In this document: positions 5 through 30,992 of the stretch, one piece after another
Layout: the number at the start of each line of letters is the position of its first letter
How positions within the stretch are numbered: the first letter of the stretch is position 1
Source of the DNA: Elusimicrobia bacterium RIFOXYA2_FULL_50_26
GTDB lineage: Bacteria; Elusimicrobiota; Endomicrobiia; Endomicrobiales; XYA2-FULL-47-53
DNA: 32,000 nucleotides
Reading direction: 5' to 3'
NCBI GenBank assembly: GCA_001800355.1
Contig: MGVF01000115.1
Span: 1 to 32,000, forward strand
The notes under the pieces: model-generated
Database searches by the model: none
The model's input: the letters and a program-made list of their open reading frames with translations, nothing else
Told to the model about the DNA's origin: nothing
Made by a program: the position numbers and the translations under genes

Positions 5-433
5 ATGAATAAAAATACAGTGCATTTTGTTGTTTGCTTATTCAGTATAATCGCCTCATCGTATTCCTTTGCTGAAGTGGCCGGTGCGCTTCCTAAATCT
101 CCTGAAACTCTCAGCAGGTACTCTTTTTATAAGGCTGCGGAAAGATTTTCACTTACGTCAGTCAGACCCAAAATTTTTTGCCCTGATGAGGCGGACGAAT
201 CGGTGGCAAAGGTATGTTTTACCATTGATAATCCGAACTTTTCAGAAGTAAGTTCAACAATATATGATATTAACGGCAACGTCGTCAAAGTAAGTTTAAC
301 GGAAGAAGGCACTGAATTATTTTCCTGGGACGGGCGTGACTCCGATAATAACGTCGTTTCCTCTGGCGTATACATATATCAATTGGAAGCTGACGGCAAA
401 GTTGTAAACGGAACAGTTGTAGTTGCTCGCTAA
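5..433 (+). CDS. small secreted protein with C-terminal FlgD-Ig-like / T9SS-CTD-like beta-sandwich
   Basis: ATG at 5. Hydrophobic N-terminal signal (VHFVVCLFSIIASSYSFA). The C-terminus FSWDGRDSDNNVVSSGVYIYQLEADGKVVNGTVVVAR fits the WDGrd..G..v.sGvY.y.l pattern of FlgD Ig-like domains. The stop lies 10 nt before the next start. Confidence 0.6.
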   Translation: MNKNTVHFVVCLFSIIASSYSFAEVAGALPKSPETLSRYSFYKAAERFSLTSVRPKIFCPDEADESVAKVCFTIDNPNFSEVSSTIYDINGNVVKVSLTEEGTELFSWDGRDSDNNVVSSGVYIYQLEADGKVVNGTVVVAR

Positions 434-443
434 AGAGGTAGTC

Positions 444-2015
444 ATGGGCAAATGCAAAAACGCTCTAATAATTGCTGCCTGCGGTATCGTCATTGCAATG
501 AACGCGTATGCCGCTTTTGACCGCCAGCCAGGCGGTGCCAGGCCGCAGAGCCTCGGCGGAGCGTTCGCAGGGCTTGCCGACGGCCCCGATGCCATGTATT
601 TCAACCCCGCCGGCCTCGGACAGTTGAGGCGAATGGAGGTCCAGGGCGGCTACTCGCGTTTATATACAGGCCTCGACGACAACAGCGACCTGGCCGATAG
701 TAATGTATTGTTTGTACTGCCGATTTCCGTCATAAAGAAGGGAAATGACGACACTGGCGGCAATGATGGTGTCATAGGTTTTGGACTGGATGTTTTTGGA
801 TTAGCCAATTATTATACTGAAAGCAGCGCCGGCATTTATTACAGCAAAAACCTTAACCCCAAAACGCTTGTCGGGGCGGGCATAAAATATCTTACCGTGA
901 GTTATGGCACTGATGAGTACACAGCCGTAAACCCGGTGTTCGCGCTTGGTACTTCTAAAAGCGAAATAAGTTTTGATGCCGGTGTTATGATAAAACCAGC
1001 CGAGAGCCTCTCCATGGGGCTTTCAATCCGCGACATTGCAAGCCCGAGCCTGGGCATTAAATACGAAGACAGGATACCGCGTAATATCATACTTGGCGCA
1101 GCATATCACAAGCCCGGGTGGAATATAGCAGGCGACCTTGCTATGGATAGCAATAGTAATATAAAATTCGTCACCGGCGCTGAAAAATGGTTCATGTCGG
1201 ACATGCTCGCTGTGCGCCTTGGGCTTGGCATCGGCAGCAGGAAATACTCCAGGCTTACTACCGGTCTTGGATACGAGGGCGAGAATGCCGTGCTTTCATA
1301 TGCTTTTTACTATCCATTGTCCGGTTTAAACGAAATGTACGGCTCTCACGAGCTTACGGTGGGTTACCGCTTCGGTTCTTCGCAATTTACGAACAAAAAG
1401 ATTGCCGCCCGGCTTTACGGTTCCGTTGTCTCGGATATTGAACGCGGGCTGTATGCCCGTGCATTGTCCGGGTTGGAAAAGGTAAGGCAGCTGTCGCCGG
1501 ATGACTCAGTTTATGAGGCTGTACAGGTAAAATTGTCTCTCGTGGCTGTATATGTTTCTGATTCATCCGGCGAAGAAAAGGATGCGACGGCAATCAGGAA
1601 CGGTGTTAGTAAATATATTATTGAAGATGATGCAAAGGAATGTGTAAAATTGTTGAGGTACGCATATAGTTTGAAGGCTGACAATGAAAAATTAAACCAG
1701 ATGGTTAAGGCCATAGCAAAAGAAAATAACGTAGTTATTGAGGACGCGGCTACAAACTGGAATATGGCAGAGCAAAAGGTGTACCAGGCGCTGGAAAGAA
1801 TCAAGGAAAAGAAATACTATGAGGCTGTCCGCCTGTGCGAGGAAGCGTTATCCCTTGAACCTGATAATGTAACCGCGTATAAACGCCTGGGTTCTGTTTT
1901 CTATTTACTGAAGGATATGGAAAAAGCAAGGAAAAACTGGCTAAAAGCCATTGAACTTGCTCCGGAAGATTCGGATATTCCTCAGATAAGGGAAATCCTG
2001 CAAAAAATACCATAA
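444..2015 (+). CDS. outer-membrane beta-barrel (FadL/TodX/PorV-like N-terminal motif) with C-terminal TPR domain
   Basis: The ATG at 444 is preferred over the TTG at 423: AAAGAGG lies 5 nt upstream. Signal peptide ...AMNAYA|AF. The motif GARPQSLGGAFAGLADGPDAMYFNPAGL is typical of FadL/OMPP1-type barrels. Alternating beta-strand-like sequence runs to about aa 315. The C-terminal part has TPR-like repeats (YYEAVRLCEEALSLEPDNVTAYKRLGSVFYLLKDMEKARKNWLKAIELAP). Confidence 0.6.
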   Translation: MGKCKNALIIAACGIVIAMNAYAAFDRQPGGARPQSLGGAFAGLADGPDAMYFNPAGLGQLRRMEVQGGYSRLYTGLDDNSDLADSNVLFVLPISVIKKGNDDTGGNDGVIGFGLDVFGLANYYTESSAGIYYSKNLNPKTLVGAGIKYLTVSYGTDEYTAVNPVFALGTSKSEISFDAGVMIKPAESLSMGLSIRDIASPSLGIKYEDRIPRNIILGAAYHKPGWNIAGDLAMDSNSNIKFVTGAEKWFMSDMLAVRLGLGIGSRKYSRLTTGLGYEGENAVLSYAFYYPLSGLNEMYGSHELTVGYRFGSSQFTNKKIAARLYGSVVSDIERGLYARALSGLEKVRQLSPDDSVYEAVQVKLSLVAVYVSDSSGEEKDATAIRNGVSKYIIEDDAKECVKLLRYAYSLKADNEKLNQMVKAIAKENNVVIEDAATNWNMAEQKVYQALERIKEKKYYEAVRLCEEALSLEPDNVTAYKRLGSVFYLLKDMEKARKNWLKAIELAPEDSDIPQIREILQKIP

Positions 2016-2036
2016 AAGCCATACCGGAGGTTGTTT

Positions 2037-3101
2037 GTGAAGATACTAATCGTTGAGGACGATCCGGAACTGAGGTTGTATGTAGGCCAGATATTGCGGA
2101 ATGCCGGTTATGATCATGAGTGCGCGGCAACAATCGAAGAATACAGGGCCAGGATCATTAATGGTTGCGATATGGCTCTGCTGGACATTGTGCTTGGCGA
2201 TAATGACGAAGATGGGGTTGAGATTTGCGGCGATATAAAAACAAATTATCCTTCAACAGCAATAATTATAGTTTCGGGGAAGAAGGAAAGCGATTTGAAG
2301 GTAAGGGCGTTGAACGTGGGCGCCGATGATTATATTTCCAAGCCATTCTACGACGATGAATTGTTAAGCAGGATAAGGCGAGTGGCCTTGCGGCGCAATA
2401 TCGTCCTCCCTGATGCGTCTGAACGCATTCGTTTTGACGACAAATCGTCCGTTATCTATATTGATGGCAATAAGATTTCCCTGGATAAAGATGAGTACCT
2501 CATTCTTAAAGTCCTCAATTCCAGAGGCGAGAACGGGGTAAAGTGGGAGCAGCTTCGCGACATAGCCTATGACGGCAGCAACATCGGCAGGGATGAGATT
2601 GTTAAAAAAGTTGATTATTTAAAGGGCAGGCTCGGCAATCTGGCGCAATTGAAAGATAATAACGGTTATTTCAGCATGGTCATAGGCGACAGTAACTGTG
2701 TGCCGGTGAAAAAAAAGAAGCGCGTTCTTGTTATTGACGATGACATGAATGCTCAGGAATTGCTAAGCGGTATTTTTGAAGAGGAATACGAGTGTTTCTC
2801 GGCTTATGACGGCAACGACGGTTTAAGAAGGATTTACGAGGTAAAGCCGGACATGGTTATACTGGACATTAGAATACCAGGTATAAACGGTTATAAACTA
2901 TGCGAGTTGATAAAAAAAATAAATGGCAGCCTGCCGGTTGTTTTCCTTACCGGAAGGTTCGTGGATGCCGGCGATAAATCACTGGGCCTGGATCTGGGCG
3001 CAGATGATTACATAACCAAGGACGTTGATCCAGACGAATTGCTGGCGCGCATCAAAACGATTGTTGCCGCATATGATAACGTAAAAAATACCAGCCGGTA
3101 A
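2037..3101 (+). CDS. response regulator, REC - OmpR/PhoB-type winged helix - REC
   Basis: GTG at 2037, 7 nt after GGAGG. REC1 has EDD...LLDIVLG...IIVSGK...ISKPF. The central IRFDD..VIYIDGNKISLDKDEYLILKVL...VKKVDYLKGRLG matches the Trans_reg_C pattern. REC2 has IDDD...ILDIRIPGINGY...FLTGR...ITKD. Acceptor Asp, Thr/Ser and Lys are present in both receivers. Confidence 0.8.
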   Translation: MKILIVEDDPELRLYVGQILRNAGYDHECAATIEEYRARIINGCDMALLDIVLGDNDEDGVEICGDIKTNYPSTAIIIVSGKKESDLKVRALNVGADDYISKPFYDDELLSRIRRVALRRNIVLPDASERIRFDDKSSVIYIDGNKISLDKDEYLILKVLNSRGENGVKWEQLRDIAYDGSNIGRDEIVKKVDYLKGRLGNLAQLKDNNGYFSMVIGDSNCVPVKKKKRVLVIDDDMNAQELLSGIFEEEYECFSAYDGNDGLRRIYEVKPDMVILDIRIPGINGYKLCELIKKINGSLPVVFLTGRFVDAGDKSLGLDLGADDYITKDVDPDELLARIKTIVAAYDNVKNTSR

Positions 3102-3115
3102 TGGAGTAGAGGCCA

Positions 3116-4846
3116 ATGCTTAACGCCATATATTCATACATGGAAAAGATCAGTATTCGCGCCAAGCTGTTTATAGTGCTGGGGAGCGTGTGTTCCGTTA
3201 CGGTGCTTCTTGGCTCAGTGAGCATAATAAATGTAAGCATCAAGCAATTCAATGAGAATTTTGAGCGGGAGCAGATGCTTGCCTGCGAATACATGGCTAT
3301 GGAAACTGAACATTACATGGCTCTGTTGAACAAAAAAATAGGATTTGTAACGGATATAGGCAGAGTTGGCATAGGTGACAGGCAATCCGTTCAGGCTATA
3401 TTAAACAGGGTTATAACCGGGAATCCGGAGATGCTTGGCGTCTACACGGTTGACGGCGGCGGCAGAATAATAAATAAAGCATACGTTGATAAATCTATTG
3501 CGCCGGACGCGCTGCAAAGCGATGGAACCTACAGAAAGGCGCTAGTTTCAGGACGTGCTGAACTCGGCGCTATTTCAAGGATGGGGAATAAGCCGGTTAT
3601 TGCGATAGCCTGTCCTTTGCCGGGGCGCAAGGGGCTTGTGTACATGTTATTCGGCTTGGACATCCTTGAGGATGTTGTGGGTCGGATTGCAAAAGCCGGC
3701 GGCATGCAGGTTTATGTTATAAATAAGAATGGTGAGGTTTTATTTTCCAGTTCACCTCTAAGCGCGGGCAAGGTTTTCAGGAAATTTGATCTGGCTTTGC
3801 ATAATAAGCAAAGCATGGTTACGGATCCAAACGGCGGCGTGTTGAGGGCTTCTATTAACAAGGGTAAAATAGAAGATTCTTTTGTTGTCATAGGAAGGGA
3901 CGCGGCGGCTGTTTCAATGCCGGTTCGCTTGATGAAGCTGATGACTGTGTTCTGGTTGTTGGTAACTTTTGGGATACTGTACTTGTTATCAATAATATTT
4001 TCAGGCTACCTGCTTACGCCTATTCTTAATCTGGTAAACGGTATGAAAATGGTGGGCGCCGGCAATTTAAATTACAAGGCCAAGGTAAATTCCGGGGATG
4101 AGATCGGGTTCCTCGCTCAAACATTTAATGCCATGGTGGAAGAGCTAAGACATGTGCGTCATGATAACCTGCGTCATAAATGCCTGGCTGCCATAAGGAA
4201 AATGTCGGAAAAAATCGGGTTGCAGGTGCGGAATCCGATGATGACCATCAACATGGCCGCTGCGATGCTGCTGCGTTACAAAGGCAGGGAGCTGAATATA
4301 GATGATCTTAAAAAGTTTACGGCCATAATCAGGAAGGAAGCATCTGTTATAAGCAAGGTGTCGGATAACCTGCTTATTTATTCGAATGAGCGCCCGCCCG
4401 TAAATAACGATATTAGCGTCAGAAATCTTTTTGACGAAATCTCGGCGCTCGCTCAAATGAAATATAACACTGCTATAAAACAGGATTTAAAGGGGGATGT
4501 CCATTTAAAGGGGGATGCATTTGAATTGCGTTGCGCGATGGTAAATATGGTTGACAACGCTATTGATGCGCTTCAGGAAACGGGAGGGGAAGTAATACTC
4601 GGTGCGGAAGAAATTGATGGGAAAGTAAGAATGTGGGTGCTGGACAACGGGCCGGGCATAGGTGAGGCGTTATTGTCACAGATTTTTGAGCCTTTGTTTA
4701 CTACGAAACCGCAAAACATCGGGTTGGGGCTGACCGTTGCAAAAAAAGTGGCCGAGCGCCACCATGGAAAGGTTGAGGTTGAGTCCAAGGTAATGGGCGG
4801 TACGCGATTTGTCATGCAATTTGATAAACCGGGGAGCGCGTCATGA
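3116..4846 (+). CDS. sensor histidine-kinase-like protein (periplasmic Cache-like, TM, HAMP, DHp, HATPase_c) with non-canonical H-box
   Basis: N-terminal TM, a ~250-aa extracytoplasmic region, then a second TM. HAMP is LTPILNLVNGMKMVGAGNLNYKAKVNSGDEIGFLAQTFNAMVEEL. N box VDNAIDAL, G1 DNGPGI, F FEPLFTTK and G2 GLGLTVAKKV are all present. The H-box position reads GLQVRNPM rather than xHExRNPL. Confidence 0.8.
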   Translation: MLNAIYSYMEKISIRAKLFIVLGSVCSVTVLLGSVSIINVSIKQFNENFEREQMLACEYMAMETEHYMALLNKKIGFVTDIGRVGIGDRQSVQAILNRVITGNPEMLGVYTVDGGGRIINKAYVDKSIAPDALQSDGTYRKALVSGRAELGAISRMGNKPVIAIACPLPGRKGLVYMLFGLDILEDVVGRIAKAGGMQVYVINKNGEVLFSSSPLSAGKVFRKFDLALHNKQSMVTDPNGGVLRASINKGKIEDSFVVIGRDAAAVSMPVRLMKLMTVFWLLVTFGILYLLSIIFSGYLLTPILNLVNGMKMVGAGNLNYKAKVNSGDEIGFLAQTFNAMVEELRHVRHDNLRHKCLAAIRKMSEKIGLQVRNPMMTINMAAAMLLRYKGRELNIDDLKKFTAIIRKEASVISKVSDNLLIYSNERPPVNNDISVRNLFDEISALAQMKYNTAIKQDLKGDVHLKGDAFELRCAMVNMVDNAIDALQETGGEVILGAEEIDGKVRMWVLDNGPGIGEALLSQIFEPLFTTKPQNIGLGLTVAKKVAERHHGKVEVESKVMGGTRFVMQFDKPGSAS

Positions 4847-6366
4847 GAACTATTGCTGCGGGCGTTGGGATTTTTTTCACTCTTGCAAGTTCTCTGGCAT
4901 ATAGCGTAGCCGGCACATTTGGAATTGACGAAAAAATTGCCCTGGAGAATTCGATAGCCAAAAGAATTGAAGATGTTACGGTAAGGATGACGGGCGACAG
5001 CAACATCATAGTGTTGGTCAATATAGAACATAATCCCACGATCGAACAGGAAGTAAAAAAAGCCGAGACTCCCGCTGCCGGCCCAGCGGCCGGTGTAAAC
5101 ACAAATAATTACCTGCCGGGTATACCGATGGATGCTTTAGAGACGGAAGTTGTCGGAAATAGCGATGGTTCTTTTACCCAGACGATAAGGTTGCCGGAGT
5201 TCATAAAAACATTGTCGGTTACCATGATATTGAGCGATGAGGTAAGCGATGCGACGTTAAACAGCGTAAGAGAATATATCTCCGGGTTGGTAAAGATTAG
5301 CGAGGTGCGCGGTGACCGCCTGGAAGTCAGGAAAATGACGTTTGTGGAAAACAAACAGGAAAAGATTAACCTTATACGCGATGTCGCCATTACGCAAATG
5401 CCGTGGTTTATTGGTTTGTTCCTGCTGGCGTTTTTCATATTCGGCCCGTTACGCAATTTTATGAAGAACATGATCTCGGCAATAGAGGTTTTCCGTATAC
5501 AGGCGGATACAAGAATAATAAGCCGTTCGGAGATCGGGGTAAAATCCGGCGGCAGGCCGGAAGGCCTCCGTGGCGGGGTCATGGGCGAGATCGGGACAAC
5601 GCAGAATGCCGGCCTTACAGGTGGCGAGGGAATCAGGAGCCTGCCGGAAGGCGGTATGCGGCACTTTGGTTTCATCAATGAAAGCAATATAGGCAGCCTG
5701 CTTTACCTGTTAAAGAATGAGACTCCGGACATGGTTGCCATAGTTTTGACGTATTTGCCCAAGGAATATTCCGGCACAATAATCAATGCGCTTCCGGAAG
5801 CGCTTCGCAAGGATACTCTTAAACAGATGGCTGTTGTAAAGCAATACCATGGCGAGGATATAAGGGTTATCGAGGACCGGCTTAAAGAACGCGTGGATTA
5901 TCTGCTTGGCGGCCCCCAGAATATAGCCGATTTAATCAATGCCTACGAGAAAGATGAACGCGAAAAAGTGCTTAAGGATATAGGCAGGGAGGACCCTGCT
6001 ACCGAGGCCGCAATAAGAAATATGCTTGTTACGGCCGACGACCTGGCAAAACTATCCAAGGAACATCTCTACGAAATTTATAAAGCCGTAGGCACCCGCA
6101 TTTTCGCTGCGGCATTGAGGGGAACTGGTGCGCAGGTGCGCGATTACGTTATGAAAAACCTCACCGAAGGCGCGCGCGATATGTTGCGCCAGGAAATGGA
6201 ATTAATTCCCAGGGATATCTCAGCCGCGCGTATTAACCAGGTGAAAAAAGACCTGATAACCGCGATGAAACGCCTGGAAGAGCAGGGTACCATTAAAATT
6301 CCGCGCGATAGTATAACAGTGGCGTCTGCCACCCCGCCCAATACCGTTCGCAAAAACCCATCCTGA
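4843..6366 (+). CDS. membrane protein: FliF/YscJ-like periplasmic ring motif + TM + Gly-rich linker + FliG middle/C-terminal-like domains
   Basis: The ATG overlaps the kinase stop (ATGA at 4843-4846). N-terminal TM/signal. IKTLSVTMILSDE...ISEVRGDRLEVRKMTF followed by the TM MPWFIGLFLLAFFIFGPL mirrors the end of the FliF periplasmic domain (IKRLSVAVVV...RGDxLxVxxxxF, then TM2). From aa 275 the sequence aligns colinearly with FliG_M and FliG_C (see findings). Confidence 0.6.
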   Translation: MRTIAAGVGIFFTLASSLAYSVAGTFGIDEKIALENSIAKRIEDVTVRMTGDSNIIVLVNIEHNPTIEQEVKKAETPAAGPAAGVNTNNYLPGIPMDALETEVVGNSDGSFTQTIRLPEFIKTLSVTMILSDEVSDATLNSVREYISGLVKISEVRGDRLEVRKMTFVENKQEKINLIRDVAITQMPWFIGLFLLAFFIFGPLRNFMKNMISAIEVFRIQADTRIISRSEIGVKSGGRPEGLRGGVMGEIGTTQNAGLTGGEGIRSLPEGGMRHFGFINESNIGSLLYLLKNETPDMVAIVLTYLPKEYSGTIINALPEALRKDTLKQMAVVKQYHGEDIRVIEDRLKERVDYLLGGPQNIADLINAYEKDEREKVLKDIGREDPATEAAIRNMLVTADDLAKLSKEHLYEIYKAVGTRIFAAALRGTGAQVRDYVMKNLTEGARDMLRQEMELIPRDISAARINQVKKDLITAMKRLEEQGTIKIPRDSITVASATPPNTVRKNPS

Positions 6367-6417
6367 TCCCCCCCAATAAGCTACTTATGGGCAAAAAAGC
6401 TGCAGCTAAAGCTTTTC

Positions 6418-6446
6418 TTGACATATTCCCGAAAGTATGTTAAAAT
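6418..6446 (+). promoter_or_regulatory. sigma70-type promoter, TTGACA-17 nt-TAAAAT
   Basis: TTGACA at 6418-6423, an exactly 17-nt spacer, and TAAAAT at 6441-6446. It lies upstream of the hairpin/tRNA/tig block. Confidence 0.5.
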
Positions 6447-6473
6447 TTTCTATCTTTTCAATGAACCGCAAAC

Positions 6474-6614
6474 TTTCATTAGGCGCGTAGGACAAGGCGA
6501 ACGAGGCCGAGGCTTTTTCGACTAAAAAAGTGAGAGCGTAGCGTTGCCTGCGGTCGAACTTTTTTAGGAAGAAAAAGTCCGGCACCGTTCGACGACTCCA
6601 GCGTCCTTATGAAA
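6474..6614 (+). ncRNA. long imperfect hairpin (~141 nt), candidate structured leader/sRNA or MITE-like palindrome
   Basis: Hand-folded helices: 6474-6481/6607-6614, 6482-6487/6602-6606, 6498-6503/6586-6591, 6506-6519/6571-6583, and 6522-6531/6558-6567 (a 10-bp perfect helix). The apex is 6532-6557. It sits between the promoter and tRNA-Lys. Confidence 0.35.
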
Positions 6615-6631
6615 ATTTACGGATGAATATT

Positions 6632-6704
6632 GCGCCGCTAGCTCAATTGGTAGAGCAGACGACTCTTAATCGTCAGGTTAGAGGTTCGATTCCTCTGCGG
6701 CGCA
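6632..6704 (+). tRNA. tRNA-Lys (anticodon CTT)
   Basis: 73-nt cloverleaf drawn by hand. Acceptor GCGCCGC/GCGGCGC, D arm GCTC-AATTGGTA-GAGC, anticodon arm GACGA-CTCTTAA-TCGTC, T arm AGAGG-TTCGATT-CCTCT, discriminator A. No encoded CCA. Confidence 0.9.
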
Positions 6705-6727
6705 GGCTTTTTACTGTTAACTGTATC

Positions 6728-6809
6728 GCCGGGATGGCGGAACTGGCAGACGCGCCAGACTTAGGATCTGGTGGGGAAACCCTTCGGAGTTCAAATCTCC
6801 GTCCCGGCA
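6728..6809 (+). tRNA. tRNA-Leu (anticodon TAG), class II with long variable arm
   Basis: Acceptor GCCGGGA/TCCCGGC, D arm GCG-GAACTGGCAGA-CGC, anticodon arm CCAGA-CTTAGGA-TCTGG, 13-nt variable arm, T arm CGGAG-TTCAAAT-CTCCG, discriminator A. Confidence 0.85.
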
Positions 6810-6851
6810 TAATCCATAATCTAATCACAATGCGGGCGAAAGGAATAGACT

Positions 6852-8147
6852 GTGCAAATAGAAAAAACCAAGATTGACGTCGTGGATGAAAAAGAATGTG
6901 CGATTGTGTTCGCCGTAGAGGTGCCGGCCGAAGAAGTGCGGCTGGAAACCGAAAATGTGTTCAATGAAATTCAAAAAACTGCCCAGTTGCCGGGTTTTCG
7001 CGTCGGCAAAGCTCCCAGGGAGATGGTCAGGACGAATTATAAAGTTATGGCGCGGGAGAGAGTAATTGAGAATCTTATCAACCGTTCCGTCAGCATCGCG
7101 CTCAGCAGCAAGAGTATTACTCCGGTAACCTATCCGCGGGTCGACAACGTTTCATTTGATTTTGAGAAGCCTTTCAGCTATCGTTTGCACGCTGAAAAAC
7201 ATCCCGAATTCAAAGTGAAGGATTATAAAGGCATACCGGTGAAAAAAGAGATAATGCCGGTTACTGACGAAAAGGTGAAGGAAAAACTTAACGGTTTGAG
7301 AGAGCGCAATGCAAGGCTTGTCGAATCCGGCGCTGAAACCGTGGGCGCTTCCCATTTCGTCCTGGTTGATTATGAGGCTTTTTCCGAAGGGCAATCTGTT
7401 GAAGAGCTGAAAACATCCGGCCAGATGATTGACATGTCCGCCGCCCAGGGGTTTGCCGGGTTTAACGAAGGTTTGATGGGAGCCAAAAAAAATGAAGAGC
7501 GCGAGATAAAAGTGCGGCTGCCCAGGGAATACCCTGACAGTAAACTGGCCGAAAAAGAGGTTGTTTTCAAGGTAAAAGTAAAAGAGATAAAGGAAAAATC
7601 GTTGCCCGCATTGGACGATGAATTCGCCAGGGACATTGGCATTGGCAGTATTGCCGAACTCGAATCGAGTTTCAAAAGTTCAATGGAAGATGAAGAAAAA
7701 CGGCGGCAGTCTGCGGAAGTCGAGAAACAGATAATCGAAGAATTGCTCAAACGAAATGAGTTCGCCGTGCCGGAGTCTCTCATCGAAGAACAGTATAATC
7801 ACCTTATGGCGCGCATGGCTGAATATTTCCGCCGGCAGCACGTCCACGAATCAGTCTGGCAGAAGAACAGCGAACAGATGAAAGAAAAATATCGCAAACA
7901 GGCCGAGAGCGATGTGCGAATTTCATACATTCTAAACGCGGTGGCCTCGGAACAGAAAATTGATGCTACCGACGAAGATATGAAAGCGGAACGGGAAAAT
8001 ATGTATAAAACAAACCCGTCAAGGGAGGGGGAAATTGATAAGTATTTCGGGGAAAACAAGGAGCGTATACAATCTCAGTTAAGAGAGAAAAAAATATTCG
8101 ACTTCCTTATTTCGGAAGCAAAAATCAAGGAAGAAATCAAAAAATAG
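6852..8147 (+). CDS. tig: trigger factor
   Basis: 431 aa with a GTG start. The N-terminal ribosome-binding signature region is [12 protein letters not shown]. Length and the tig-clpP-clpX-lon synteny fit. Confidence 0.9.
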
Positions 8148-8178
8148 TTTGCTGGTTGGCTTTAAAGGAGAACAAAAC

Positions 8179-8790
8179 ATGTCAGGACTTGTACCTACAA
8201 TAATAGAACGCTGGAACCAGGGGGCAGCGGTTGGTTATGATATATATTCGCGCCTTCTTAAAGACCGTATAATCTTTGTGGGCGGTTACGGCGGCGCTGT
8301 AACCACTGATTCGGCAAATCTCATTATCGCGCAGCTTCTGTATCTTGAAGCCGAAGACCCGGATAAAGACATAAACCTTTATATAAACTCTCCCGGTGGC
8401 ATGGTAACCGCGGGGCTTGCCGTTTATGATACCATGCAATACATAAAATGCCCGATAACCACTATCTGCATGGGAATGGCAATGTCGTTCGGCGCGCTTC
8501 TTCTTGCAGCCGGCACAAACGGGCGGCGCTATGCCTTGCCGCATTCCCGGGTTATGATTCACCAGCCTCTTATTTACGGCGAGGGAATATCCGGTCCCGT
8601 TACGGACATAGACATCGAAACCAAAGAGCTTCTCGGCACCAAGGCAAAGCTTACTGATATACTGTCTCACCACACCGGCCAGACAAAGGACAGGGTGCGC
8701 CAGGATACGGAGCGCAACTATTACATGTCCGCCGAAGAAGCCAAAAAATACGGCATAATTGACGAAATTATTGCCAGTAGAAAGAAGTAA
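8179..8790 (+). CDS. clpP: ATP-dependent Clp protease proteolytic subunit (atypical: Asn at catalytic Asp position)
   Basis: ATG at 8179, 7 nt after [40 protein letters not shown] (Ser) and MIHQP (His) are all present. The tail [13 protein letters not shown] aligns with DTDRDNFKSAEEA of B. subtilis ClpP. Confidence 0.9.
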
Positions 8791-22826: not shown

Positions 22827-23573
22827 TTATTTTAACTGTTTTAACTTATCGTCATATACTTCCGAAACGTAGAAGTTCACTTCATCAACCATAACCGGAT
22901 AATTGCTTACCGGCAGTCCCTCTTCACCGAGTATTACAAGATTTTTTCCTGTATTTTTCTTAAGTATTGAATGAAATCCTATAAGGGCATATTTGTCTTT
23001 GTCTTCGGTTTCGATTATATAATAATCCAGCTTTTCGCCGGGAAGTATCTCCCTGTTTTCTTTAATCACCTGCCCGCTGATTACCTCATATAAACGTTTC
23101 TTTTGAAGTTTTGTCAGCACTTCCTCCTGCAACCGTCTCTTTTTTTCCATCTTCTTTGCAAGCAAGTCAAGCTTGTCGCCGGTTACAGGATCGCCAAAAG
23201 AGGATTTTGTTCCGTATTTTGTTACCTCGATATTACATTTTACGGGGGATTTATTAATTTCCGAAGGTGATGCGTTCATTATTTTCCCGAATACAACTAA
23301 TGTCCTGCCCATGCTATTCTTGAGCTCGCCGGCCTTTTCACCGGTAAGCACGTGCTTGTAACCCTTGTTGCTTGACGTCAGCACCAGCAAGCCATCTTCC
23401 ATGCTAAGCGTGCCTTTAACCTGTAGCATTAAAGGCATTGTTTTAACTTTGCCCGGTATATATCCTGACTTCGATTTGTCTCCTGTAAAGCGTATCACGG
23501 CCACGCTTCCGATGATTAGAATTATTAAGGCCACTGCCGCTGCGGCTAATTTTTTTCTCTGCTGTGCATTCAT
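22827..23573 (-). CDS. membrane-anchored hypothetical protein (beta domain - charged helix - beta domain)
   Basis: ATG at 23573, 5 nt after AGAGGTG. N-terminal anchor AAAAVALIILIIGSVAVI. Two similar beta-rich halves are separated by DKLDLLAKKMEKKRRLQEEVLTKLQKKRL. No family recognised. Confidence 0.6.
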   Translation of the reverse strand: MNAQQRKKLAAAAVALIILIIGSVAVIRFTGDKSKSGYIPGKVKTMPLMLQVKGTLSMEDGLLVLTSSNKGYKHVLTGEKAGELKNSMGRTLVVFGKIMNASPSEINKSPVKCNIEVTKYGTKSSFGDPVTGDKLDLLAKKMEKKRRLQEEVLTKLQKKRLYEVISGQVIKENREILPGEKLDYYIIETEDKDKYALIGFHSILKKNTGKNLVILGEEGLPVSNYPVMVDEVNFYVSEVYDDKLKQLK

Positions 23574-23615
23574 GAACACACCTCTATTTATATATTAACT
23601 GTCCGCTTGTTCACA

Positions 23616-23644
23616 ATTATAACAGAATATCCTTTTAGTTGCAA
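23616..23644 (-). promoter_or_regulatory. sigma70-type promoter on minus strand, TTGCAA-17 nt-TATAAT
   Basis: Read on the minus strand: TTGCAA (23644-23639), a 17-nt spacer, and TATAAT (23621-16). About 40 nt upstream of the 23573 start. Confidence 0.55.
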
Positions 23645-23656
23645 CGCGAACTACAA

Positions 23657-23692
23657 AGAAAAAAACAGGCCGTATAAACGGCCTGTTTTTTC
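23657..23692 (-). terminator. rho-independent terminator of the 775-aa gene
   Basis: Stem ACAGGCCG (23665-23672) / CGGCCTGT (23679-23686). On the minus strand it is followed by a T-run. It lies 24 nt beyond the stop at 23716. Confidence 0.75.
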
Positions 23693-23715
23693 TTTAAATA
23701 CTTTTAGAGCAAACA

Positions 23716-26043
23716 TTACAATCCTAGCGTTTGCTGAATAATTTCGTAACGTTCGTTGGCTTCGAGAGCATTCCACTGGTCTATGCTCATCTGGTTTAAT
23801 ATGTCATTCTTTATGAGGTCGCTCATCTCCGAGAAGTTTTTCTTGTAGAACTCCATGTCCTGGAGGCCTTCTTTTGCGTCTGCCACAGCCTTCTCGCCCG
23901 ATATGAAGCCACCGCCATAAGAGACGTTAACCTTTATGGATTTCGATCCGCTAACGTCGGACGATATGTCTCCCATGAACATTACAGACTCGCCAATTCC
24001 GGTAGTTGCAAGCGAAGCTGCAATCTCGGGCGCGTCCGTAACGTCCACGAACATAACGCCGTCCATATCCTGCATTCCCTTGCCGTCTAAAATATCAATG
24101 GTGTCAACGCTCAGTTTGGCATAGGTGCGTCCGTCAATTTGTTCGAGGCCTGAGAATGTGCCAATCACTATCGGATCCGCGCTTACGCAGTTGTATCCCT
24201 GAACTATCGAGATCTTTGTGCCAACAGCGCTTAGCTGATCATTGATGTCCGAGGGTAGCGTGTTGCCGGTTCCGACGTACTTGGATAATATAGTCCTTAG
24301 AGAGCTAACCCTGGCTTTTAATTCAGTACGTACTGACGATAAGGCAGCCGCCGCTTTATCATCTGAAGCCACGGTTGCCGCAGAACCCTGCTCGTAGGTT
24401 ATGGAGATATCCGCCGACTCCTTGTTTATGAAAAGATTTTCAAGTTTCGCAAGGCTAAGCGTATCAATCTTGCTTGAAAGCTCGTCAAGCGCGGCAATCC
24501 ACTCTTCAGCAGAACTCGTTTCTGATACTTTGTTCTCCAATTCTGCATTAATCGCCGATACGTCAAATGCTTTTTCCACTAATTTATTCGCTATTTCGCC
24601 TTCCAGTTGAGCGGATGGGTCAAGGCTGGCACAGTTGACTTTTCCTGCCTGCGCGCCGTAAGCATATAGCATCACGTCAACCACAAACTTATTGCCGGAG
24701 CCGGTTATGCCAAGCTGATTGGAAACACTGCCATTCTGCGTGTCTGCATAAGTAAGCGTTAATACCGGTCCGTTGCCTATGCTTCTTTGAAGGGCAAAGC
24801 TTTTAAAATATTTTACATCTTCATCGCCTGTATTCCACCCCATGACAAGCTTTAGCGTCTCATTGTTCATATCTTTAATCTGATTCGCATAAAGCTGTAT
24901 GGACTGTAGCCATGCAGGTTTGGTATAGCTTGGATTATTTATTATTTTGGTGTATTCCTTGCGCATGGTATCGGCGTTCAGGTCATTCGTCCCGGTTCCA
25001 AGCTTGCCGCTTCCTGACACTACCGCTCTGCCCCTGGTGTCAAAAACGGTTGTAGACCAGCCGCCTTCAGCAGCAAAGACTTCCATGGCATTTATCGTGC
25101 CGTTAAGGTGATAATTTCTTGCCGAAACCTTTATTCCCAGGTCATTGGTAACGAAACCCAGTTTTCCTGCCTGGTAATGAGATGTTTCCTTTGTTGCATA
25201 GTCGTATGTGCTTTGGAGTGATCCGTCATTCCGGTAGTTAAAACTTGTGTCGTCGCCGACTACTTTGCCGCTTGAGTCAAGGAGTACCGAAGATTTAGCT
25301 TTACCGATCAGCTGTCCCTGACTATAATAAATCACCCTGGCTTTTTGATCCTGGTAATAGACATCCGCGCCGCTATCGTCTTTATTCCAGCCGCTCTTAT
25401 TTTCACTGGACAGCTTGTCGTACTGTTCTTTTGTTATCATTTTAAGCTGTTTTGTATCTGTATATTCCAGCAAGCCATCTCTGCCGTAGTTGTATTCTTC
25501 CACGACAGCGCCATCGTGAGCATAAGTCTTAACGTTTTTTCCATTCTCTACCAATGTTACACCGGCGCCGCCTTGTGAGAAATTTACCGATATGGAATTA
25601 TTCGCCTTTGAAATATGCACTATGGCGGTGTTAATCCATGCGGCTTTGGTAGCCTCTTTCTCTATGCTTGCCTTGCCGGAATCGGACATTTTCACGCCCA
25701 GGGAACCCTGTAGCTGTGAATCGCTTATGCCCCATTTATTAAGATATTTCTCAAGGCCACCCGAGGCTGCGACGTCATCGTTATGATTTACCATTATGTT
25801 AAGCCATGTGCCGTCAGCATCCACGGTGCCGCGGTATTTGCCGCGGTCGAAAATTTGCAGGTTGCCGTTAGCATCTTTAACGGAAGCCAGCATCCCTGAT
25901 TTGTAGTTGAATACGGTGCTGATCCTGCTGCTTAATGCGCTGAAAGGATCAGCGGCGGCAAACAAGCCGGCAGGCGCAACAAAAAGTAAGAGGGTTGATA
26001 CAAGCCATGCTGCGATCCGTTGAAGCGTTTGTTTGGTAAACAT
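23716..26043 (-). CDS. large secreted hypothetical protein with degenerate YD-like repeats in the N-terminal half
   Basis: ATG at 26043, 8 nt after AAGGAGG. Signal peptide ...FVAPAGLFAAA. YD-like segments EEYNYGRDGLLEYTD and SFNYRNDGSLQSTYDYATKETSHY. The C-terminal ~350 aa match no family I recognise. Confidence 0.7.
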   Translation of the reverse strand: MFTKQTLQRIAAWLVSTLLLFVAPAGLFAAADPFSALSSRISTVFNYKSGMLASVKDANGNLQIFDRGKYRGTVDADGTWLNIMVNHNDDVAASGGLEKYLNKWGISDSQLQGSLGVKMSDSGKASIEKEATKAAWINTAIVHISKANNSISVNFSQGGAGVTLVENGKNVKTYAHDGAVVEEYNYGRDGLLEYTDTKQLKMITKEQYDKLSSENKSGWNKDDSGADVYYQDQKARVIYYSQGQLIGKAKSSVLLDSSGKVVGDDTSFNYRNDGSLQSTYDYATKETSHYQAGKLGFVTNDLGIKVSARNYHLNGTINAMEVFAAEGGWSTTVFDTRGRAVVSGSGKLGTGTNDLNADTMRKEYTKIINNPSYTKPAWLQSIQLYANQIKDMNNETLKLVMGWNTGDEDVKYFKSFALQRSIGNGPVLTLTYADTQNGSVSNQLGITGSGNKFVVDVMLYAYGAQAGKVNCASLDPSAQLEGEIANKLVEKAFDVSAINAELENKVSETSSAEEWIAALDELSSKIDTLSLAKLENLFINKESADISITYEQGSAATVASDDKAAAALSSVRTELKARVSSLRTILSKYVGTGNTLPSDINDQLSAVGTKISIVQGYNCVSADPIVIGTFSGLEQIDGRTYAKLSVDTIDILDGKGMQDMDGVMFVDVTDAPEIAASLATTGIGESVMFMGDISSDVSGSKSIKVNVSYGGGFISGEKAVADAKEGLQDMEFYKKNFSEMSDLIKNDILNQMSIDQWNALEANERYEIIQQTLGL

Positions 26044-26153
26044 TGGATTTACCTCCTTGTTAGTTATATTTCTCATTTCGTCCGATGTCTTGCTATTGTA
26101 ATAACTGTCGCTTATGAAATATGTATGGAAAAAAAATGTAATAATTGTGAAAT

Positions 26154-27317
26154 TTATCTTATTGTTTTTAAATCATTAAAGTATTGTTTATACCATTCCT
26201 TAATCATTTCACCTGTAGGTTTGGTGGAATCACTTAGTTGTATCTTTATGTCATCGCGTTGGTACTGGTAAATTTGCACTGTATTATCATGCTCATTGTA
26301 GAATCCCATCAGCCTGCCGGTGTAATATATCCACTCTTTAATTTTGTACTCATTGAATACAGTATAAAGCGGTTTGGAATTTATGTCATAATATGTCGTC
26401 TCGTTTGTTCTCCTGTCAAAGGTATACGCCAGTTTTACTCCGTCATAGCAATAATCCTTTACAACCCCGCCTTCACTTGACGTGGTATATACAGGTTTGC
26501 CGTTTTTATAATATGTAATGTCGCCGTACGTCGGTCCCATGTTTGATATATCTACCGATTTTTCAAGTATAGTATTGCCACTGGCATCTTTTTTGTAGCT
26601 ATATTCGGTTATTTTGTCTCCCTTGTAATTTTCAGTGTGGCTAAGGTTGCCGTTTTTGTTGAAATAACTTTTATTTCCATATACGTCTTCTTTATATTCC
26701 ATTCTGCCCTGGTTGTCGTAAGTATACTGCGCTATCTTGTTGCCTTCGAAATCTTCGTCGTAAAGGGCCTGGCCTGTTGCGTTAAAAATAGTTTTGGTCA
26801 TTGTAAGTTCGTCAAGCACATGTTCCACGTTCTTGCCGTACTTGTCATATTTATAACTTTTTACTTTGTTGCCTTCATAATCGTATTCATTCATGACTTT
26901 GCCGCCCATCCCCAGTTCCTGGTGGCCGATTTTTTCACCGGCGGCTGTCTTAACTATCACCCTGTTTGTGCCTTTTTCTCTTTCCGATATTTCTATAACG
27001 TTACCGTCAACGTCTTTCTTAATGGTCTTGCCTGACAGGGAGAATTCCTGCGAGCCGTCAACGTTCACTTTTACCGTAAGCCCGCCGCCGGGCGTGAAGT
27101 AAAGGCGGTTGCCGTACTTGTCCCTTGCCGCTATGGGGCGGTTGGGGAGGATGTCCACCATGTAATTGGGCTTGCCGAAATCCTGTTGTTCTACCGGCCT
27201 CAATTGATCTTGCGGGCCGAAATTAACACGGGGGGGTTCCAACGCTTCCATAAAACCGAAAGCGGTGTTATTGAGGAAGGCCAGCGTGGTAATAATTACG
27301 GGAATTGTTTTTTTCAT
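26154..27317 (-). CDS. secreted YD/Rhs-repeat protein (no Rhs core or toxin domain)
   Basis: Signal peptide MKKTIPVIITTLAFLNNTAFG. Repeats include YDYEGNKVKSYKYDKYGKNV, QYTYDNQGRMEYKEDVYGNKSYFNKNGNL and EYSYKKDASGNTI. Very AT-rich coding sequence. Confidence 0.7.
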   Translation of the reverse strand: MKKTIPVIITTLAFLNNTAFGFMEALEPPRVNFGPQDQLRPVEQQDFGKPNYMVDILPNRPIAARDKYGNRLYFTPGGGLTVKVNVDGSQEFSLSGKTIKKDVDGNVIEISEREKGTNRVIVKTAAGEKIGHQELGMGGKVMNEYDYEGNKVKSYKYDKYGKNVEHVLDELTMTKTIFNATGQALYDEDFEGNKIAQYTYDNQGRMEYKEDVYGNKSYFNKNGNLSHTENYKGDKITEYSYKKDASGNTILEKSVDISNMGPTYGDITYYKNGKPVYTTSSEGGVVKDYCYDGVKLAYTFDRRTNETTYYDINSKPLYTVFNEYKIKEWIYYTGRLMGFYNEHDNTVQIYQYQRDDIKIQLSDSTKPTGEMIKEWYKQYFNDLKTIR

Positions 27318-27778: not shown

Positions 27779-27845
27779 AAGCGTGCCTTAATTTGTGCAT
27801 TTGCCGTTTTGGCGAATGTTCTTTTTTTGTATTAAGGAGGTCCCT

Positions 27846-30057: not shown

Positions 30058-30435
30058 GTGAACGAAATGGCGACAATTCTTATCGTCGAAGATGAAGAGT
30101 GGATCGCAAGCTTGATGAGCGAGAGGCTTCAAAAGGCAGGGCATCATACCGCCACTGCCATGACGATAAGCGAGGGAATGGCAAAACTGAAGGAGTTGAA
30201 GCCCGACGTTGTAACGCTTGATATAATTATGCCGGACTGTTCCGGGCTTGAGATGTTGCGAAGCATAAGGAAAGATCCTGAAACGTTTGCCATACCCGTG
30301 GTCGTTGTATCTTCTACTGATGAATCGGAACGGGCTTTTTCACTTGGCGCTGATGGTTATGTGCAGAAGCCGGTAAATTTTTCAAAATTGCTTGATGCGG
30401 TGAAACATTTCGCAGTTCTTGATAAAGTGTCATGA
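30058..30435 (+). CDS. single-domain CheY-like response regulator receiver
   Basis: ILIVEDEE, acceptor VVTLDIIMPDCSG, VVVVSST, VQKPV. The start is GTG 30058 or ATG 30067; this is not resolved. Confidence 0.85.
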   Translation: MNEMATILIVEDEEWIASLMSERLQKAGHHTATAMTISEGMAKLKELKPDVVTLDIIMPDCSGLEMLRSIRKDPETFAIPVVVVSSTDESERAFSLGADGYVQKPVNFSKLLDAVKHFAVLDKVS

Positions 30436-30992
30436 AGAAAAATATAGTAATTATCATGTTATTTTCAATGCTGGCTAATTTTCTGCTTCCGCGCTGTGCG
30501 GTGGAGCTGAAGGATTATGAACTGCTTTCAGGTATAATGAAGAGCCAGTCTATACTGTTTTACATGTTTTATTTCCAGATAGCCCCTTTAAAAGTTGTGA
30601 AGGCGCTTTATGGTAAGCAGGAGTCTTGTTCCAGGGCAACTAAAACTGAGGAAAAGGACAATCAGTCTCCGGCGCACGCAAACACGTCAGCTGATTTTTC
30701 ACTGGTTGGCGCAGATAAGTCGGTCGTTTTGAACCGTCTTTTAAAAGGGATGTGCGCAGGTAATATATGGCAGTCATTATGGATGCCGGACAAGCGCGAC
30801 ATTATCAAGTCCAAGACATGGATAAATCGTTTCAGCGGCGGTTTTTTTAACGTAACAATTCTCATCCTTGCTATTTTTATGGTTGCCCGCCCGCGCAGCG
30901 GAATCGAATACTTATTTTTACCTTTATATATTTTACGAAAACCCGGTTTTCACGAAAACCCGGGTTTTTTTATTTCCGAGGTGACACTATGA
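30432..30992 (+). CDS. hypothetical membrane protein (uncertain)
   Basis: ATGA overlaps link it to the receiver gene stop (30432-30435) and to the next start (30989-30992). It has two hydrophobic segments. Its 3-prime end reads through a terminator-like hairpin. Confidence 0.45.
   Translation: MKKNIVIIMLFSMLANFLLPRCAVELKDYELLSGIMKSQSILFYMFYFQIAPLKVVKALYGKQESCSRATKTEEKDNQSPAHANTSADFSLVGADKSVVLNRLLKGMCAGNIWQSLWMPDKRDIIKSKTWINRFSGGFFNVTILILAIFMVARPRSGIEYLFLPLYILRKPGFHENPGFFISEVTL
30938..30975 (+). terminator. terminator-like hairpin inside the 3-prime end of ORF 30432-30992
   Basis: AAAACCCGG (30938-30946) pairs with CCGGGTTTT (30960-30968) around a 13-nt loop, followed by TTTATTT. Confidence 0.35.

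Follow-up and report, generated by a model that had tools for sequence, protein, structure and literature searches.

The stretch of DNA considered here, hereafter the window, is a piece of 32,000 nucleotides from Elusimicrobia bacterium RIFOXYA2_FULL_50_26 (assembly GCA_001800355.1, contig MGVF01000115.1, positions 1 to 32,000 of the forward strand), whose host belongs to the Rifle-type groundwater Elusimicrobia. As the last gene of a five-gene block on the same strand, it carries a complete gene joining two proteins of the flagellar rotor: the ring-building motif 3 (RBM3) and second transmembrane segment (TM2) of FliF are fused, through a linker, to the middle and C-terminal domains of FliG (FliG_M and FliG_C, together FliG_MC). 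An initial annotation, made from the sequence alone, had delimited this open reading frame (ORF) as 4843-6366, and its position, its strand and its length of 507 aa proved exact. The ATG of the fusion gene overlaps the stop codon of the histidine kinase gene upstream (ATGA), so that the two genes are translationally coupled. Gene and protein are laid out as follows, AF2 standing for an AlphaFold2 model and dN/dS for the ratio of nonsynonymous to synonymous substitution rates.

4843..6366, + strand: complete FliF(RBM3-TM2)-linker-FliG(M+C) fusion gene, 507 aa; dN/dS 0.076 against an 85%-identical orthologue.
4843..4914, + strand: N-terminal hydrophobic helix, residues 1-24 (Kyte-Doolittle 4-22; AF2 helix 2-22; dN/dS 0.56).
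4915..5352, + strand: external FliF RBM3-like ring-building domain, residues 25-170 (family profiles, AF2 and Foldseek).
5395..5457, + strand: TM2, residues 185-205, aligned with TM2 of FliF and ending in a conserved F-x-FGP motif (198-202).
5458..5505, + strand: conserved juxtamembrane cytoplasmic helix, residues 206-221 (AF2 and conservation).
5506..5658, + strand: Gly-rich disordered linker, residues 222-272 (AF2 predicted local distance difference test, pLDDT, <50; dN/dS 0.25).
5659..5910, + strand: FliG middle domain, residues 273-356, ending at a Gly-Gly hinge (356-357).
5911..6306, + strand: FliG C-terminal domain, residues 357-488.
6157..6201, + strand: torque helix NLTEGARDMLRQEME, residues 439-453.

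Both domains of the C-terminal half pass the Pfam cut-offs, FliG_M (PF14841) with 52.8 bits over residues 285-351 (cut-off 25) and FliG_C (PF01706) with 66.8 bits over residues 379-486 (cut-off 23.3). The closest solved relative is the crystal structure of FliG_MC of T. maritima, 1lkv (E=1e-23), collinear over residues 273-488. When folds are compared, Foldseek places FliG_MC first (E ~1e-10, single domains with TM-scores of 0.81-0.88; for FliG_C, TMt of 0.81 with 1qc7 and 0.87 with 8ucs_H) and, in a second tier, the RBM3/collar rings of FliF (E 5e-3 to 2e-2, TMt ~0.5); MgtE structures come behind both, only at E >=0.3. The initial annotation had read this half as FliG(M+C) and had named the N-terminal domain of MgtE as the candidate to be compared with it by HMMER and Foldseek; on both counts the FliG assignment stands. 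MgtE_N (PF03448) was tried for this half and rejected: it scores 22.8 bits, below its cut-off of 25.9, over 40 residues only, and its fold matches less well than that of FliG. Neither CBS nor MgtE channel domains are found in the fusion protein. Against the FliG equivalog TIGR00207 (cut-off 226.7), it obtains 85.6 bits, the match being confined to profile positions 111-330, so that it has to be regarded as FliG-derived rather than as a bona fide FliG.

The kinship of the N-terminal half with FliF is weak in the window sequence taken alone, where PF08345 (YscJ_FliF_C) gives 15.4 bits, below the cut-off of 23.8. It becomes significant at the level of the family, which upholds the FliF-like N-terminal part first proposed: PF08345 is matched individually by 10 of 18 close and distant homologues and by 51 of 67 members in a larger set (best E=6.6e-12), and the family profile aligns with Salmonella FliF (6scn) at E=5.7e-10, its positions 37-240 corresponding to FliF residues 241-504. 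A profile restricted to the first 225 residues of the family aligns with FliF in two collinear blocks. The first places profile positions 35-77 on FliF 241-283 (helix 1 and strand 1 of RBM3), the second places positions 123-223 on FliF 382-499 and contains the segment IERLSVAVVV...KRGDTLNVVNSPF, followed by TM2. The same restricted profile also gives a weak match to SpoIIIAG. As for the SctJ-like RBM1/RBM2 (PF01514), it has no match in the window protein and is not among the top families of the 67 members; the external domain comprises only ~146 residues.

The AF2 model (mean pLDDT 68.5, ~80 inside domains) predicts for this domain a helix (28-50), a strand (56-63), an insertion (64-120), a second strand (121-131), a second helix (136-150) and a last strand (159-165), then a membrane helix (171-200), a helix (202-221), a disordered stretch (222-272) and the helical FliG_M and FliG_C. 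The predicted order of the elements is that of the ring-building motif in FliF RBM3. The insertion, collar-like by its position, is about half as long as the beta-collar of FliF and carries an invariant LPG (91-93), and a near-invariant RGD (156-158) precedes the last strand of the motif.

Kyte-Doolittle analysis delimits only two hydrophobic segments, 4-22 and 180-207. The second one encloses the transmembrane segment initially placed at 5398-5457 (residues 186-205), which is thereby confirmed. The charge difference around TM2 is too small for the positive-inside rule to decide the topology, and the assignment follows instead from the signal-like N-terminal segment, from the homology to FliF and from the cytoplasmic nature of FliG domains: the fusion protein is an inner-membrane protein with two passes (or a signal peptide and one pass), FliG_MC lying in the cytoplasm. 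Residues 1-24 may act as a signal peptide that is cleaved off or as an anchor, TM1.

Between TM2 and FliG_M there are only ~70 residues, most of them disordered. Together with the presence of only two hydrophobic segments, this means that FliG_N and the C-terminal cytoplasmic tail of FliF are absent, in agreement with what had been claimed at first; in place of the tail, a Gly-rich linker runs straight into FliG_M. This linker had been located at about 5500-5660, i.e. residues 220-273, which corresponds closely to the disorder predicted at 222-272. The sole match to FliG_N is spurious (15.9 bits for a cut-off of 25) and overlaps FliG_M/C at residues 296-382. Among relatives the linker varies in length and sequence. 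The juxtamembrane helix between TM2 and the linker (RNFMKNMISAIEVFRIQADTRI), for which no counterpart was identified in FliF or FliG, is followed or occupied by residues invariant in the close subfamily, E215, D222 and R224.

The fusion is not restricted to the window. The 225 N-terminal residues retrieve 80 cluster representatives (clusters at 50% identity) among 1.84 billion, and the match always lies at the N-terminus of proteins of ~450-800 aa, never at the position that it would occupy in a true FliF. FliG_M is present in all of 67 members tested and FliG_C in 66, an extra C-terminal TPR domain being found in ~14 of them. LPG, RGD, F-x-FGP, the Gly-Gly hinge and the E-G-A of the torque helix are conserved throughout the family. 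In the comparison with the 85%-identical orthologue, dN/dS is 0.044 for the RBM3-like domain, 0.029 for FliG_M and 0.053 for FliG_C, the higher values being those of the linker and of the signal/TM1 segment. The fusion family is thus conserved and under strong purifying selection. This bears directly on the idea that the gene could be the decaying relic of a lost flagellum, devoid of present function, an idea to which one might be led by the departure of the FliM-binding and torque-helix residues from the flagellar consensus and by the host phylum having largely lost flagella. It is hardly credible in view of the low dN/dS in all the folded domains (0.03-0.05), of a frame maintained in 80 or more divergent clusters from several phyla, and of the conservation of both motifs and gene order; as a pseudogene, the gene is ruled out by its overall dN/dS.

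We fetched the loci of distant family members from metagenomes and GTDB representative genomes and mapped the partner genes by tblastn. The hosts are Elusimicrobiota of several lineages, one Ignavibacteria metagenome-assembled genome (MAG), Candidatus Firestonebacteria and unclassified MAGs. The fusion gene has motA and/or motB, which encode the stator, within ~4.5 kb in 13 of 17 independent lineages, and in 12 of the 17 a gene for an outer-membrane barrel with a TPR domain, orthologous to one of the window (24-57% identity, >90% coverage), stands directly upstream of it. Two arrangements recur: histidine kinase, receiver (REC) protein, giant protein of ~2270 aa, barrel-TPR, fusion, motA, motB, motB; and small sorting-domain protein, barrel-TPR, fusion with a C-terminal TPR, large unknown protein, flbD, motA, motB. 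In locus L004 the operon reads REC-motA-motB-motB-histidine kinase-fusion. The reverse search, starting from the stator P0174, leads back to the same module: sorting-domain protein, PorP_SprF barrel, histidine kinase, TPR protein, fusion, motA, motB, motB.

One cluster stator aligns over its full length with a solved flagellar MotA (E=2e-51), and the best NCBIfam matches are PomA/MotP/MotA (1e-56 to 1e-70), compared with ~1e-3 for TolQ/ExbB; by these matches the stators of the cluster are of flagellar type. MotB1 keeps the proton-carrying Asp (D32 of E. coli) in every locus. Most stator operons encode a second MotB paralogue (for example L004 7525-8250, L009 821-1489, L011 12865-13557, L014 12911-13615, L016 14309-15118 and L017 14979-15800), and in 6 of 9 loci this paralogue has Asn or Thr at the position of D32, which suggests either a MotB1/MotB2 heterodimer or an accessory peptidoglycan anchor.

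Stators of this type, accompanied by FlbD, could also be expected if the fusion protein were an accessory or alternative rotor, or a scaffold, of a genuine flagellum, comparable to FliG paralogues or to PflA/PflB and FlcA. TPR proteins are common as flagellar stator scaffolds, and some Ignavibacteria, like a few Elusimicrobiota, carry complete flagellar gene sets. Yet within flanks of 8-10 kb, in ~20 fetched loci, no flagellar structural gene was called, whether FliM, FliN, FlhA, FliI, FliPQR, rod, hook or flagellin, which agrees with the non-flagellar locus described in the initial annotation. Moreover, the neighbours resemble a type IX secretion system (T9SS) rather than a flagellum, the fusion has neither RBM1/RBM2, which house the export gate, nor FliG_N, nor the FliM-binding motif, and most free-living Elusimicrobiota are reported without structural flagellar genes. 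We therefore consider a flagellar accessory role improbable.

Another possibility is raised by the natural FliF-FliG fusion described earlier in Chlamydiaceae (CT719 family; NF004606; Bergeron 2016, PMC4768692), namely that the protein is, as proposed for the chlamydial one, a basal-body component of an apparatus related to the type III secretion system (T3SS). The window protein does match NF004606, but with 24.2 bits for a cut-off of 297 and in the FliG_M region only (residues 281-328 on profile positions 292-339). The SctJ-like RBM2 is missing and FliG_C, which is absent in Chlamydia, is retained; no T3SS gene was seen in any locus, the linked genes being motAB and those resembling T9SS. 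Such a role is very improbable. That a natural fusion is unusual, as the initial annotation had it, holds for the domain make-up, which differs from what was known, but not for the fusion as such.

In the window protein the equivalent of EHPQ reads ETPD (residues 293-296), as had been noticed, and the equivalent of R160 is Q328; across the family the FliM-binding EHPQR has become E-x-P-[DE] and R160 is mostly lost, which fits the absence of FliM. On the torque helix, the equivalents of R281, D288 and D289 are G443, Q450 and E451, again as first read. Of the two positions said to have stayed basic, that of K264 indeed has (R426), while the equivalent of R297 is S460 in both the HMMER and the MAFFT alignments and is S, T or P family-wide, arginines being found only nearby (R457 and R463).

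In flagellar motors, R90 of MotA pairs with D289 of FliG, and E98 of MotA with R281 of FliG (PMC7564593; PMC12505986). Among 67 rotor proteins, 52 have Gly at the position of R281 and a single one has a basic residue there, and 50 have Glu at the position of D289. On the stator side, E98 is replaced by Gln in 77 of 120 homologues and conserved as Glu in 13, and the position of R90 is K or R in 118. As judged from the alignments, the charge pair E98/R281 is thus neutralised on both partners (Gln and Gly), while the pair R90/D289 is retained. One pair kept and the other doubly neutralised is what could be expected if these stators and this rotor cooperate and have co-evolved, and we regard the reciprocal changes as suggestive of such a co-evolution. 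The torque helix, which had been called degenerate, is indeed changed in its residues, but it is not simply degenerate, since neighbouring MotA proteins show the reciprocal changes. The window protein keeps the family-specific form of this helix (EGAR...QE), which elsewhere co-occurs with MotA of the Q98 type. We find it reasonably probable that the fusion protein acts as a rotor-like partner of dedicated stators, in an envelope machine that is not a flagellum.

The nature of this putative machine may be approached through the other genes of the five-gene block, all located upstream of the fusion gene.

5..433, + strand: secreted protein of 142 aa, with a signal peptide and a T9SS type-A sorting domain / FlgD_ig-like beta-sandwich.
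423..2015, + strand: outer-membrane protein of 530 aa, with a signal peptide, a barrel (72-316) and a periplasmic TPR domain (321-528).
2031..3101, + strand: response regulator of 356 aa, made of a REC domain, an OmpR/PhoB-like winged-helix-like segment and a second REC domain.
3116..4846, + strand: dCache-HAMP histidine kinase of 576 aa, orthologous to the L004 kinase (31.7% identity, 97% coverage, E=8e-88).

The 142-aa protein is recognised by TIGR04183 with 25.1 bits (cut-off 23). The 530-aa protein matches the full PorV_fam profile (NF033709) at E=1e-11, with 45 bits, and its orthologue in L006 does so at E=6e-24, with 85.2 bits, both scores lying under the cut-off of 90 bits; PF11751 (PorP_SprF) is recorded in relatives. 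Its AF2 model (pLDDT 84.9) predicts a 14-stranded PorV/PorQ-like barrel (FadL-type), then the TPR domain, and the best TM-scores of the barrel are with PorV in structures of the type 9 translocon (6h3i_F, 0.62; 8gl6_F, 0.60). In the standard topology of outer-membrane proteins, such a barrel has its two termini on the periplasmic side, and the TPR domain is therefore placed in the periplasm. The giant neighbour of ~2270 aa found in other lineages begins with DUF2341 and continues with fn3 and BNR/Sortilin repeats up to a sorting-type C-terminal sandwich (L006 1504-8325); orthologues of it are present in L011, L012, L014 and L018. In the window lineage, the position of the giant protein is reduced to the 142 aa, little more than a signal peptide and the sandwich. 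Pfam notes DUF2341 in proteins annotated as MotA/TolQ/ExbB. The layout of the window regulator is also unusual, relatives carrying a CheY-sized single-domain REC protein at the equivalent place of the cluster.

From these partners a wider arrangement can be drawn, to which we give somewhat less than even credit: a trans-envelope coupling made of a minimal rotor, dedicated MotAB, a TPR link and a PorV/PorP-like barrel holding a large surface protein. RBM3-like domains would assemble as a ring in the inner membrane and display a ring of FliG_MC in the cytoplasm. Units of the MotA5B2 type, anchored to peptidoglycan, would act on this ring by way of the modified torque helix, turning or loading it with the ion flow. 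On its external side, the ring would engage the periplasmic TPR domain carried by the outer-membrane barrel, the barrel itself holding the sorting domain of the surface protein, and the output of the motor might move, deploy or gate this protein, by analogy with T9SS and gliding driven by GldLM. The neighbouring two-component system could regulate expression or activity; a comparable proposal links PorX, through its CheY-like domain, to the T9SS motor (PMC10951265). In this arrangement, taken whole and with the same reserve, the fusion protein would be a minimal rotor derived from the flagellum, without export gate, rod or C-ring.

Several observations weigh against the rotor reading, some of them in the window clade itself. 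In the window and in its relatives at 62-85% identity, the 10 kb that flank the fusion gene on each side contain neither motA nor motB, and regulator genes are inserted where other lineages have the stators. Besides, this clade has LVTADD where most family members keep the MFxF-like motif of FliG, and the window copy of the barrel, with its 45 bits, remains under the curated PorV_fam cut-off of 90. More generally, the collar-like insertion (64-120) is modelled with low confidence; the interface substitutions, both positions being nearly fixed, are suggestive but do not amount to a formal covariation test. Neither SprA/Sov nor GldK/L/M/N was seen in the loci, though a sorting-domain protein would need a route across the outer membrane. 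Some host phyla, e.g. Ignavibacteria, may finally be flagellated, and the fusion protein may have an accessory flagellar role there.

Stator genes are also absent from the window among all ORFs of at least 100 aa scanned, and from the 5 kb upstream of its start. The window lineage retains the barrel-TPR, sorting-domain, kinase and regulator genes. This situation brings forward the main rival of a rotor: the fusion protein could be a membrane scaffold or signalling adaptor working independently of any stator, FliG_MC serving without rotation as a cytoplasmic platform which could bind the neighbouring regulator or kinase, under a periplasmic ring in contact with the barrel-TPR protein. We put it in the first place among the rivals because LVTADD replaces the MFxF-like motif and because the regulators occupy the place of the stators. 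The translational coupling to the kinase gene points in the same direction, as do the ARM-like domains of FliG, which are general interaction modules related to the sensor formed by the MgtE N-domain. Yet the torque helix is retained in the form found elsewhere with Q98-type MotA, FliG_C is under purifying selection as strong as in the relatives linked to stators, and the window kinase is orthologous to the one encoded inside the stator-fusion operon of L004. These three features argue that the window lineage still uses a stator; a scaffold or signalling role appears unlikely, though it deserves more consideration than the other rivals.

Elusimicrobia MAGs commonly hold several motAB sets. A search with a cluster MotA as query retrieved many MotA proteins of Elusimicrobia, several MAGs having two or more of them; none could be tied to bins of the window lineage. 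Divergent MotA proteins of the cluster type share assembly accession prefixes in the pairs P0140/P0171, P0197/P0204 and P0189/P0203, so that single Elusimicrobiota genomes encode at least two such stator sets, matching the "numerous homologues" of a preprint discussed below. In the window lineage the module is no longer linked to the stator genes, which may reside elsewhere in the genome, or the ring may be used without stator.

Compared with the flagellar FliF/FliG junction of Salmonella and Vibrio, the family shares TM2, an RBM3 fold whose last strand contains RGD and whose collar position holds an insertion, the domains FliG_M and FliG_C including Gly-Gly hinge and torque helix, the membrane topology, and MotA/MotB stators (PomA/MotP-like). 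It differs by the lack of RBM1/RBM2, hence of a housing for the export gate, by a collar insertion of about half the length, by a disordered Gly-rich tether instead of the FliF tail and FliG_N, by the loss of EHPQR, by the change of R281 to Gly with that of E98 to Gln in the partner MotA, and by the absence of FliM/FliN, export, rod, hook and filament genes nearby. The flagellar FliF ring counts ~33-34 subunits. Fusions of FliF to FliG have been engineered in Salmonella and Vibrio (PDB 8z4d; PMC10941966; Francis 1992 and Thomas 2001, as cited in PMC4768692); unlike the present one, which is natural and conserved, they keep full-length FliF and FliG.

With the Chlamydiaceae fusion, the family has in common a shortened FliF covalently joined to a FliG-derived cytoplasmic domain, two transmembrane segments and a non-flagellated lineage. 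The chlamydial protein, however, has ~330 aa, with an SctJ-like RBM2, one RBM-like domain and the FliG_M region only; its presumed partner is the injectisome and no stator is linked to it, whereas the family described here keeps RBM3 and FliG_C with its torque helix and is linked to motAB.

The GldLM/PorLM motor of T9SS and gliding in Bacteroidota (PMC8986121) offers a parallel for the whole cluster: an ion-driven inner-membrane motor of the 5:2 type, barrels of the PorV/PorQ/PorP family (PMC9143113 for the roles of PorV and PorP; PDB 6h3i and 8gl6 for the translocon), sorting-domain surface proteins and a two-component or CheY-like control. By analogy, the two systems would be alike in function. 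Here, on the other hand, the motor consists of MotA/MotB and a FliF/FliG-like ring, the barrel has a fused periplasmic TPR domain, SprA/Sov, GldK and GldN are not seen in the loci, and the hosts are Elusimicrobiota, Firestonebacteria, unclassified MAGs and one Ignavibacteria MAG instead of Bacteroidota.

The literature consulted contains no description of the fusion family, of its gene cluster, or of a link between FliG and T9SS components. A preprint on magnetotactic Elusimicrobiota reports that complete flagellar sets occur in few of these bacteria and that most free-living ones lack structural flagellar proteins, yet possess motAB, flbD and fliG in the form of "numerous homologues" with a role called "enigmatic" (10.1101/2022.07.08.499144). 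The "fliG" of this preprint very probably includes the fusion family; it is treated there at the level of KEGG gene presence only, with no mention of the FliF fusion, of a conserved cluster, of partners resembling T9SS or of substitutions at the interface. A study of stator evolution distinguishes flagellar and generic classes of MotA relatives and describes no FliG-like partner outside flagella (PMC12505986). What is new is therefore the conserved fusion family and its multi-gene module, since a FliF-FliG fusion as such was already known in Chlamydiaceae; should the coupling model be correct, the whole system could represent a new category.

On this reading, the core of rotor and stator (RBM3 ring, FliG_MC and MotA/MotB) would be separable from the flagellum as a stand-alone module maintained by selection. 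It would need neither switch complex nor export apparatus, nor rod, hook and filament, and would be re-wired to outer-membrane partners resembling those of type IX secretion. Beside flagella and GldLM/T9SS, this would be a third case of a 5:2 ion motor put to moving or deploying structures of the cell surface, with gliding or adhesin cycling as possible outputs in Elusimicrobiota and in neighbouring candidate phyla mostly devoid of flagella. It would also bear on the evolution of the flagellum, as an exaptation following flagellar loss or as an ancestral-like stage, and it offers an explanation for motAB, flbD and fliG in non-flagellated Elusimicrobiota. The covalent tether makes FliG_N and the FliF tail dispensable, and a naturally minimal rotor on a single polypeptide, with a matched stator, could serve structural and single-molecule studies of torque generation, where Gly and Gln in place of R281 and E98 are of particular interest. 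On a practical side, family proteins are named "hypothetical protein" or "FliG" in databases, labels which can lead to a false inference of flagellar motility in MAGs.

Some observations concern individual loci and the surroundings of the block. In a 17.8-kb locus of a Candidatus Firestonebacteria MAG (L015), where no stator or barrel-TPR gene was detected, two fusion paralogues of 482 and 731 aa follow each other in tandem (4896-6344 and 6341-8536). In L022 and L023, which cover the region upstream of the window start, the gene for the 142-aa protein is preceded by a second kinase of the CHASE4-HisKA-HATPase type, 581-605 aa long (L022 3363-5108; L023 3291-5108); a 259-aa protein without family is also encoded directly upstream of it, and glycoside hydrolases, of family GH35 or containing carbohydrate-binding modules (CBM), precede both genes.

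In the window, tRNA genes and then tig-clpP-clpX-lon lie downstream of the fusion gene. A scan for promoters and terminators gave no clear internal terminator within the five-gene block, and the only strong promoter-like site, of sigma-70 type and close to the consensus, lies downstream of it, at 6418-6446 (TTGACA, 17 nt spacer, TAAAAT, extended TG), both being weak indications. This site is located in the 265-nt spacer which separates the fusion gene from tRNA-Lys(CTT) and tRNA-Leu(TAG), at 6631-6809; overlapping these tRNAs, the ORF listed at 6623-6877 is probably spurious. Further along, at 22827-27317 on the minus strand, three consecutive ORFs (249, 785 and 386 aa) match no Pfam family at E <=0.05 and partly coincide with the lowest-GC stretch of the window (GC 0.375 at 26001-27000). 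Finally, a TPR-rich protein of 724 aa is encoded at 27795-29969, then a single-domain REC protein of 125 aa (30058-30435) whose gene overlaps an unannotated 186-aa ORF (30432-30992), and these genes may form another small signalling module.

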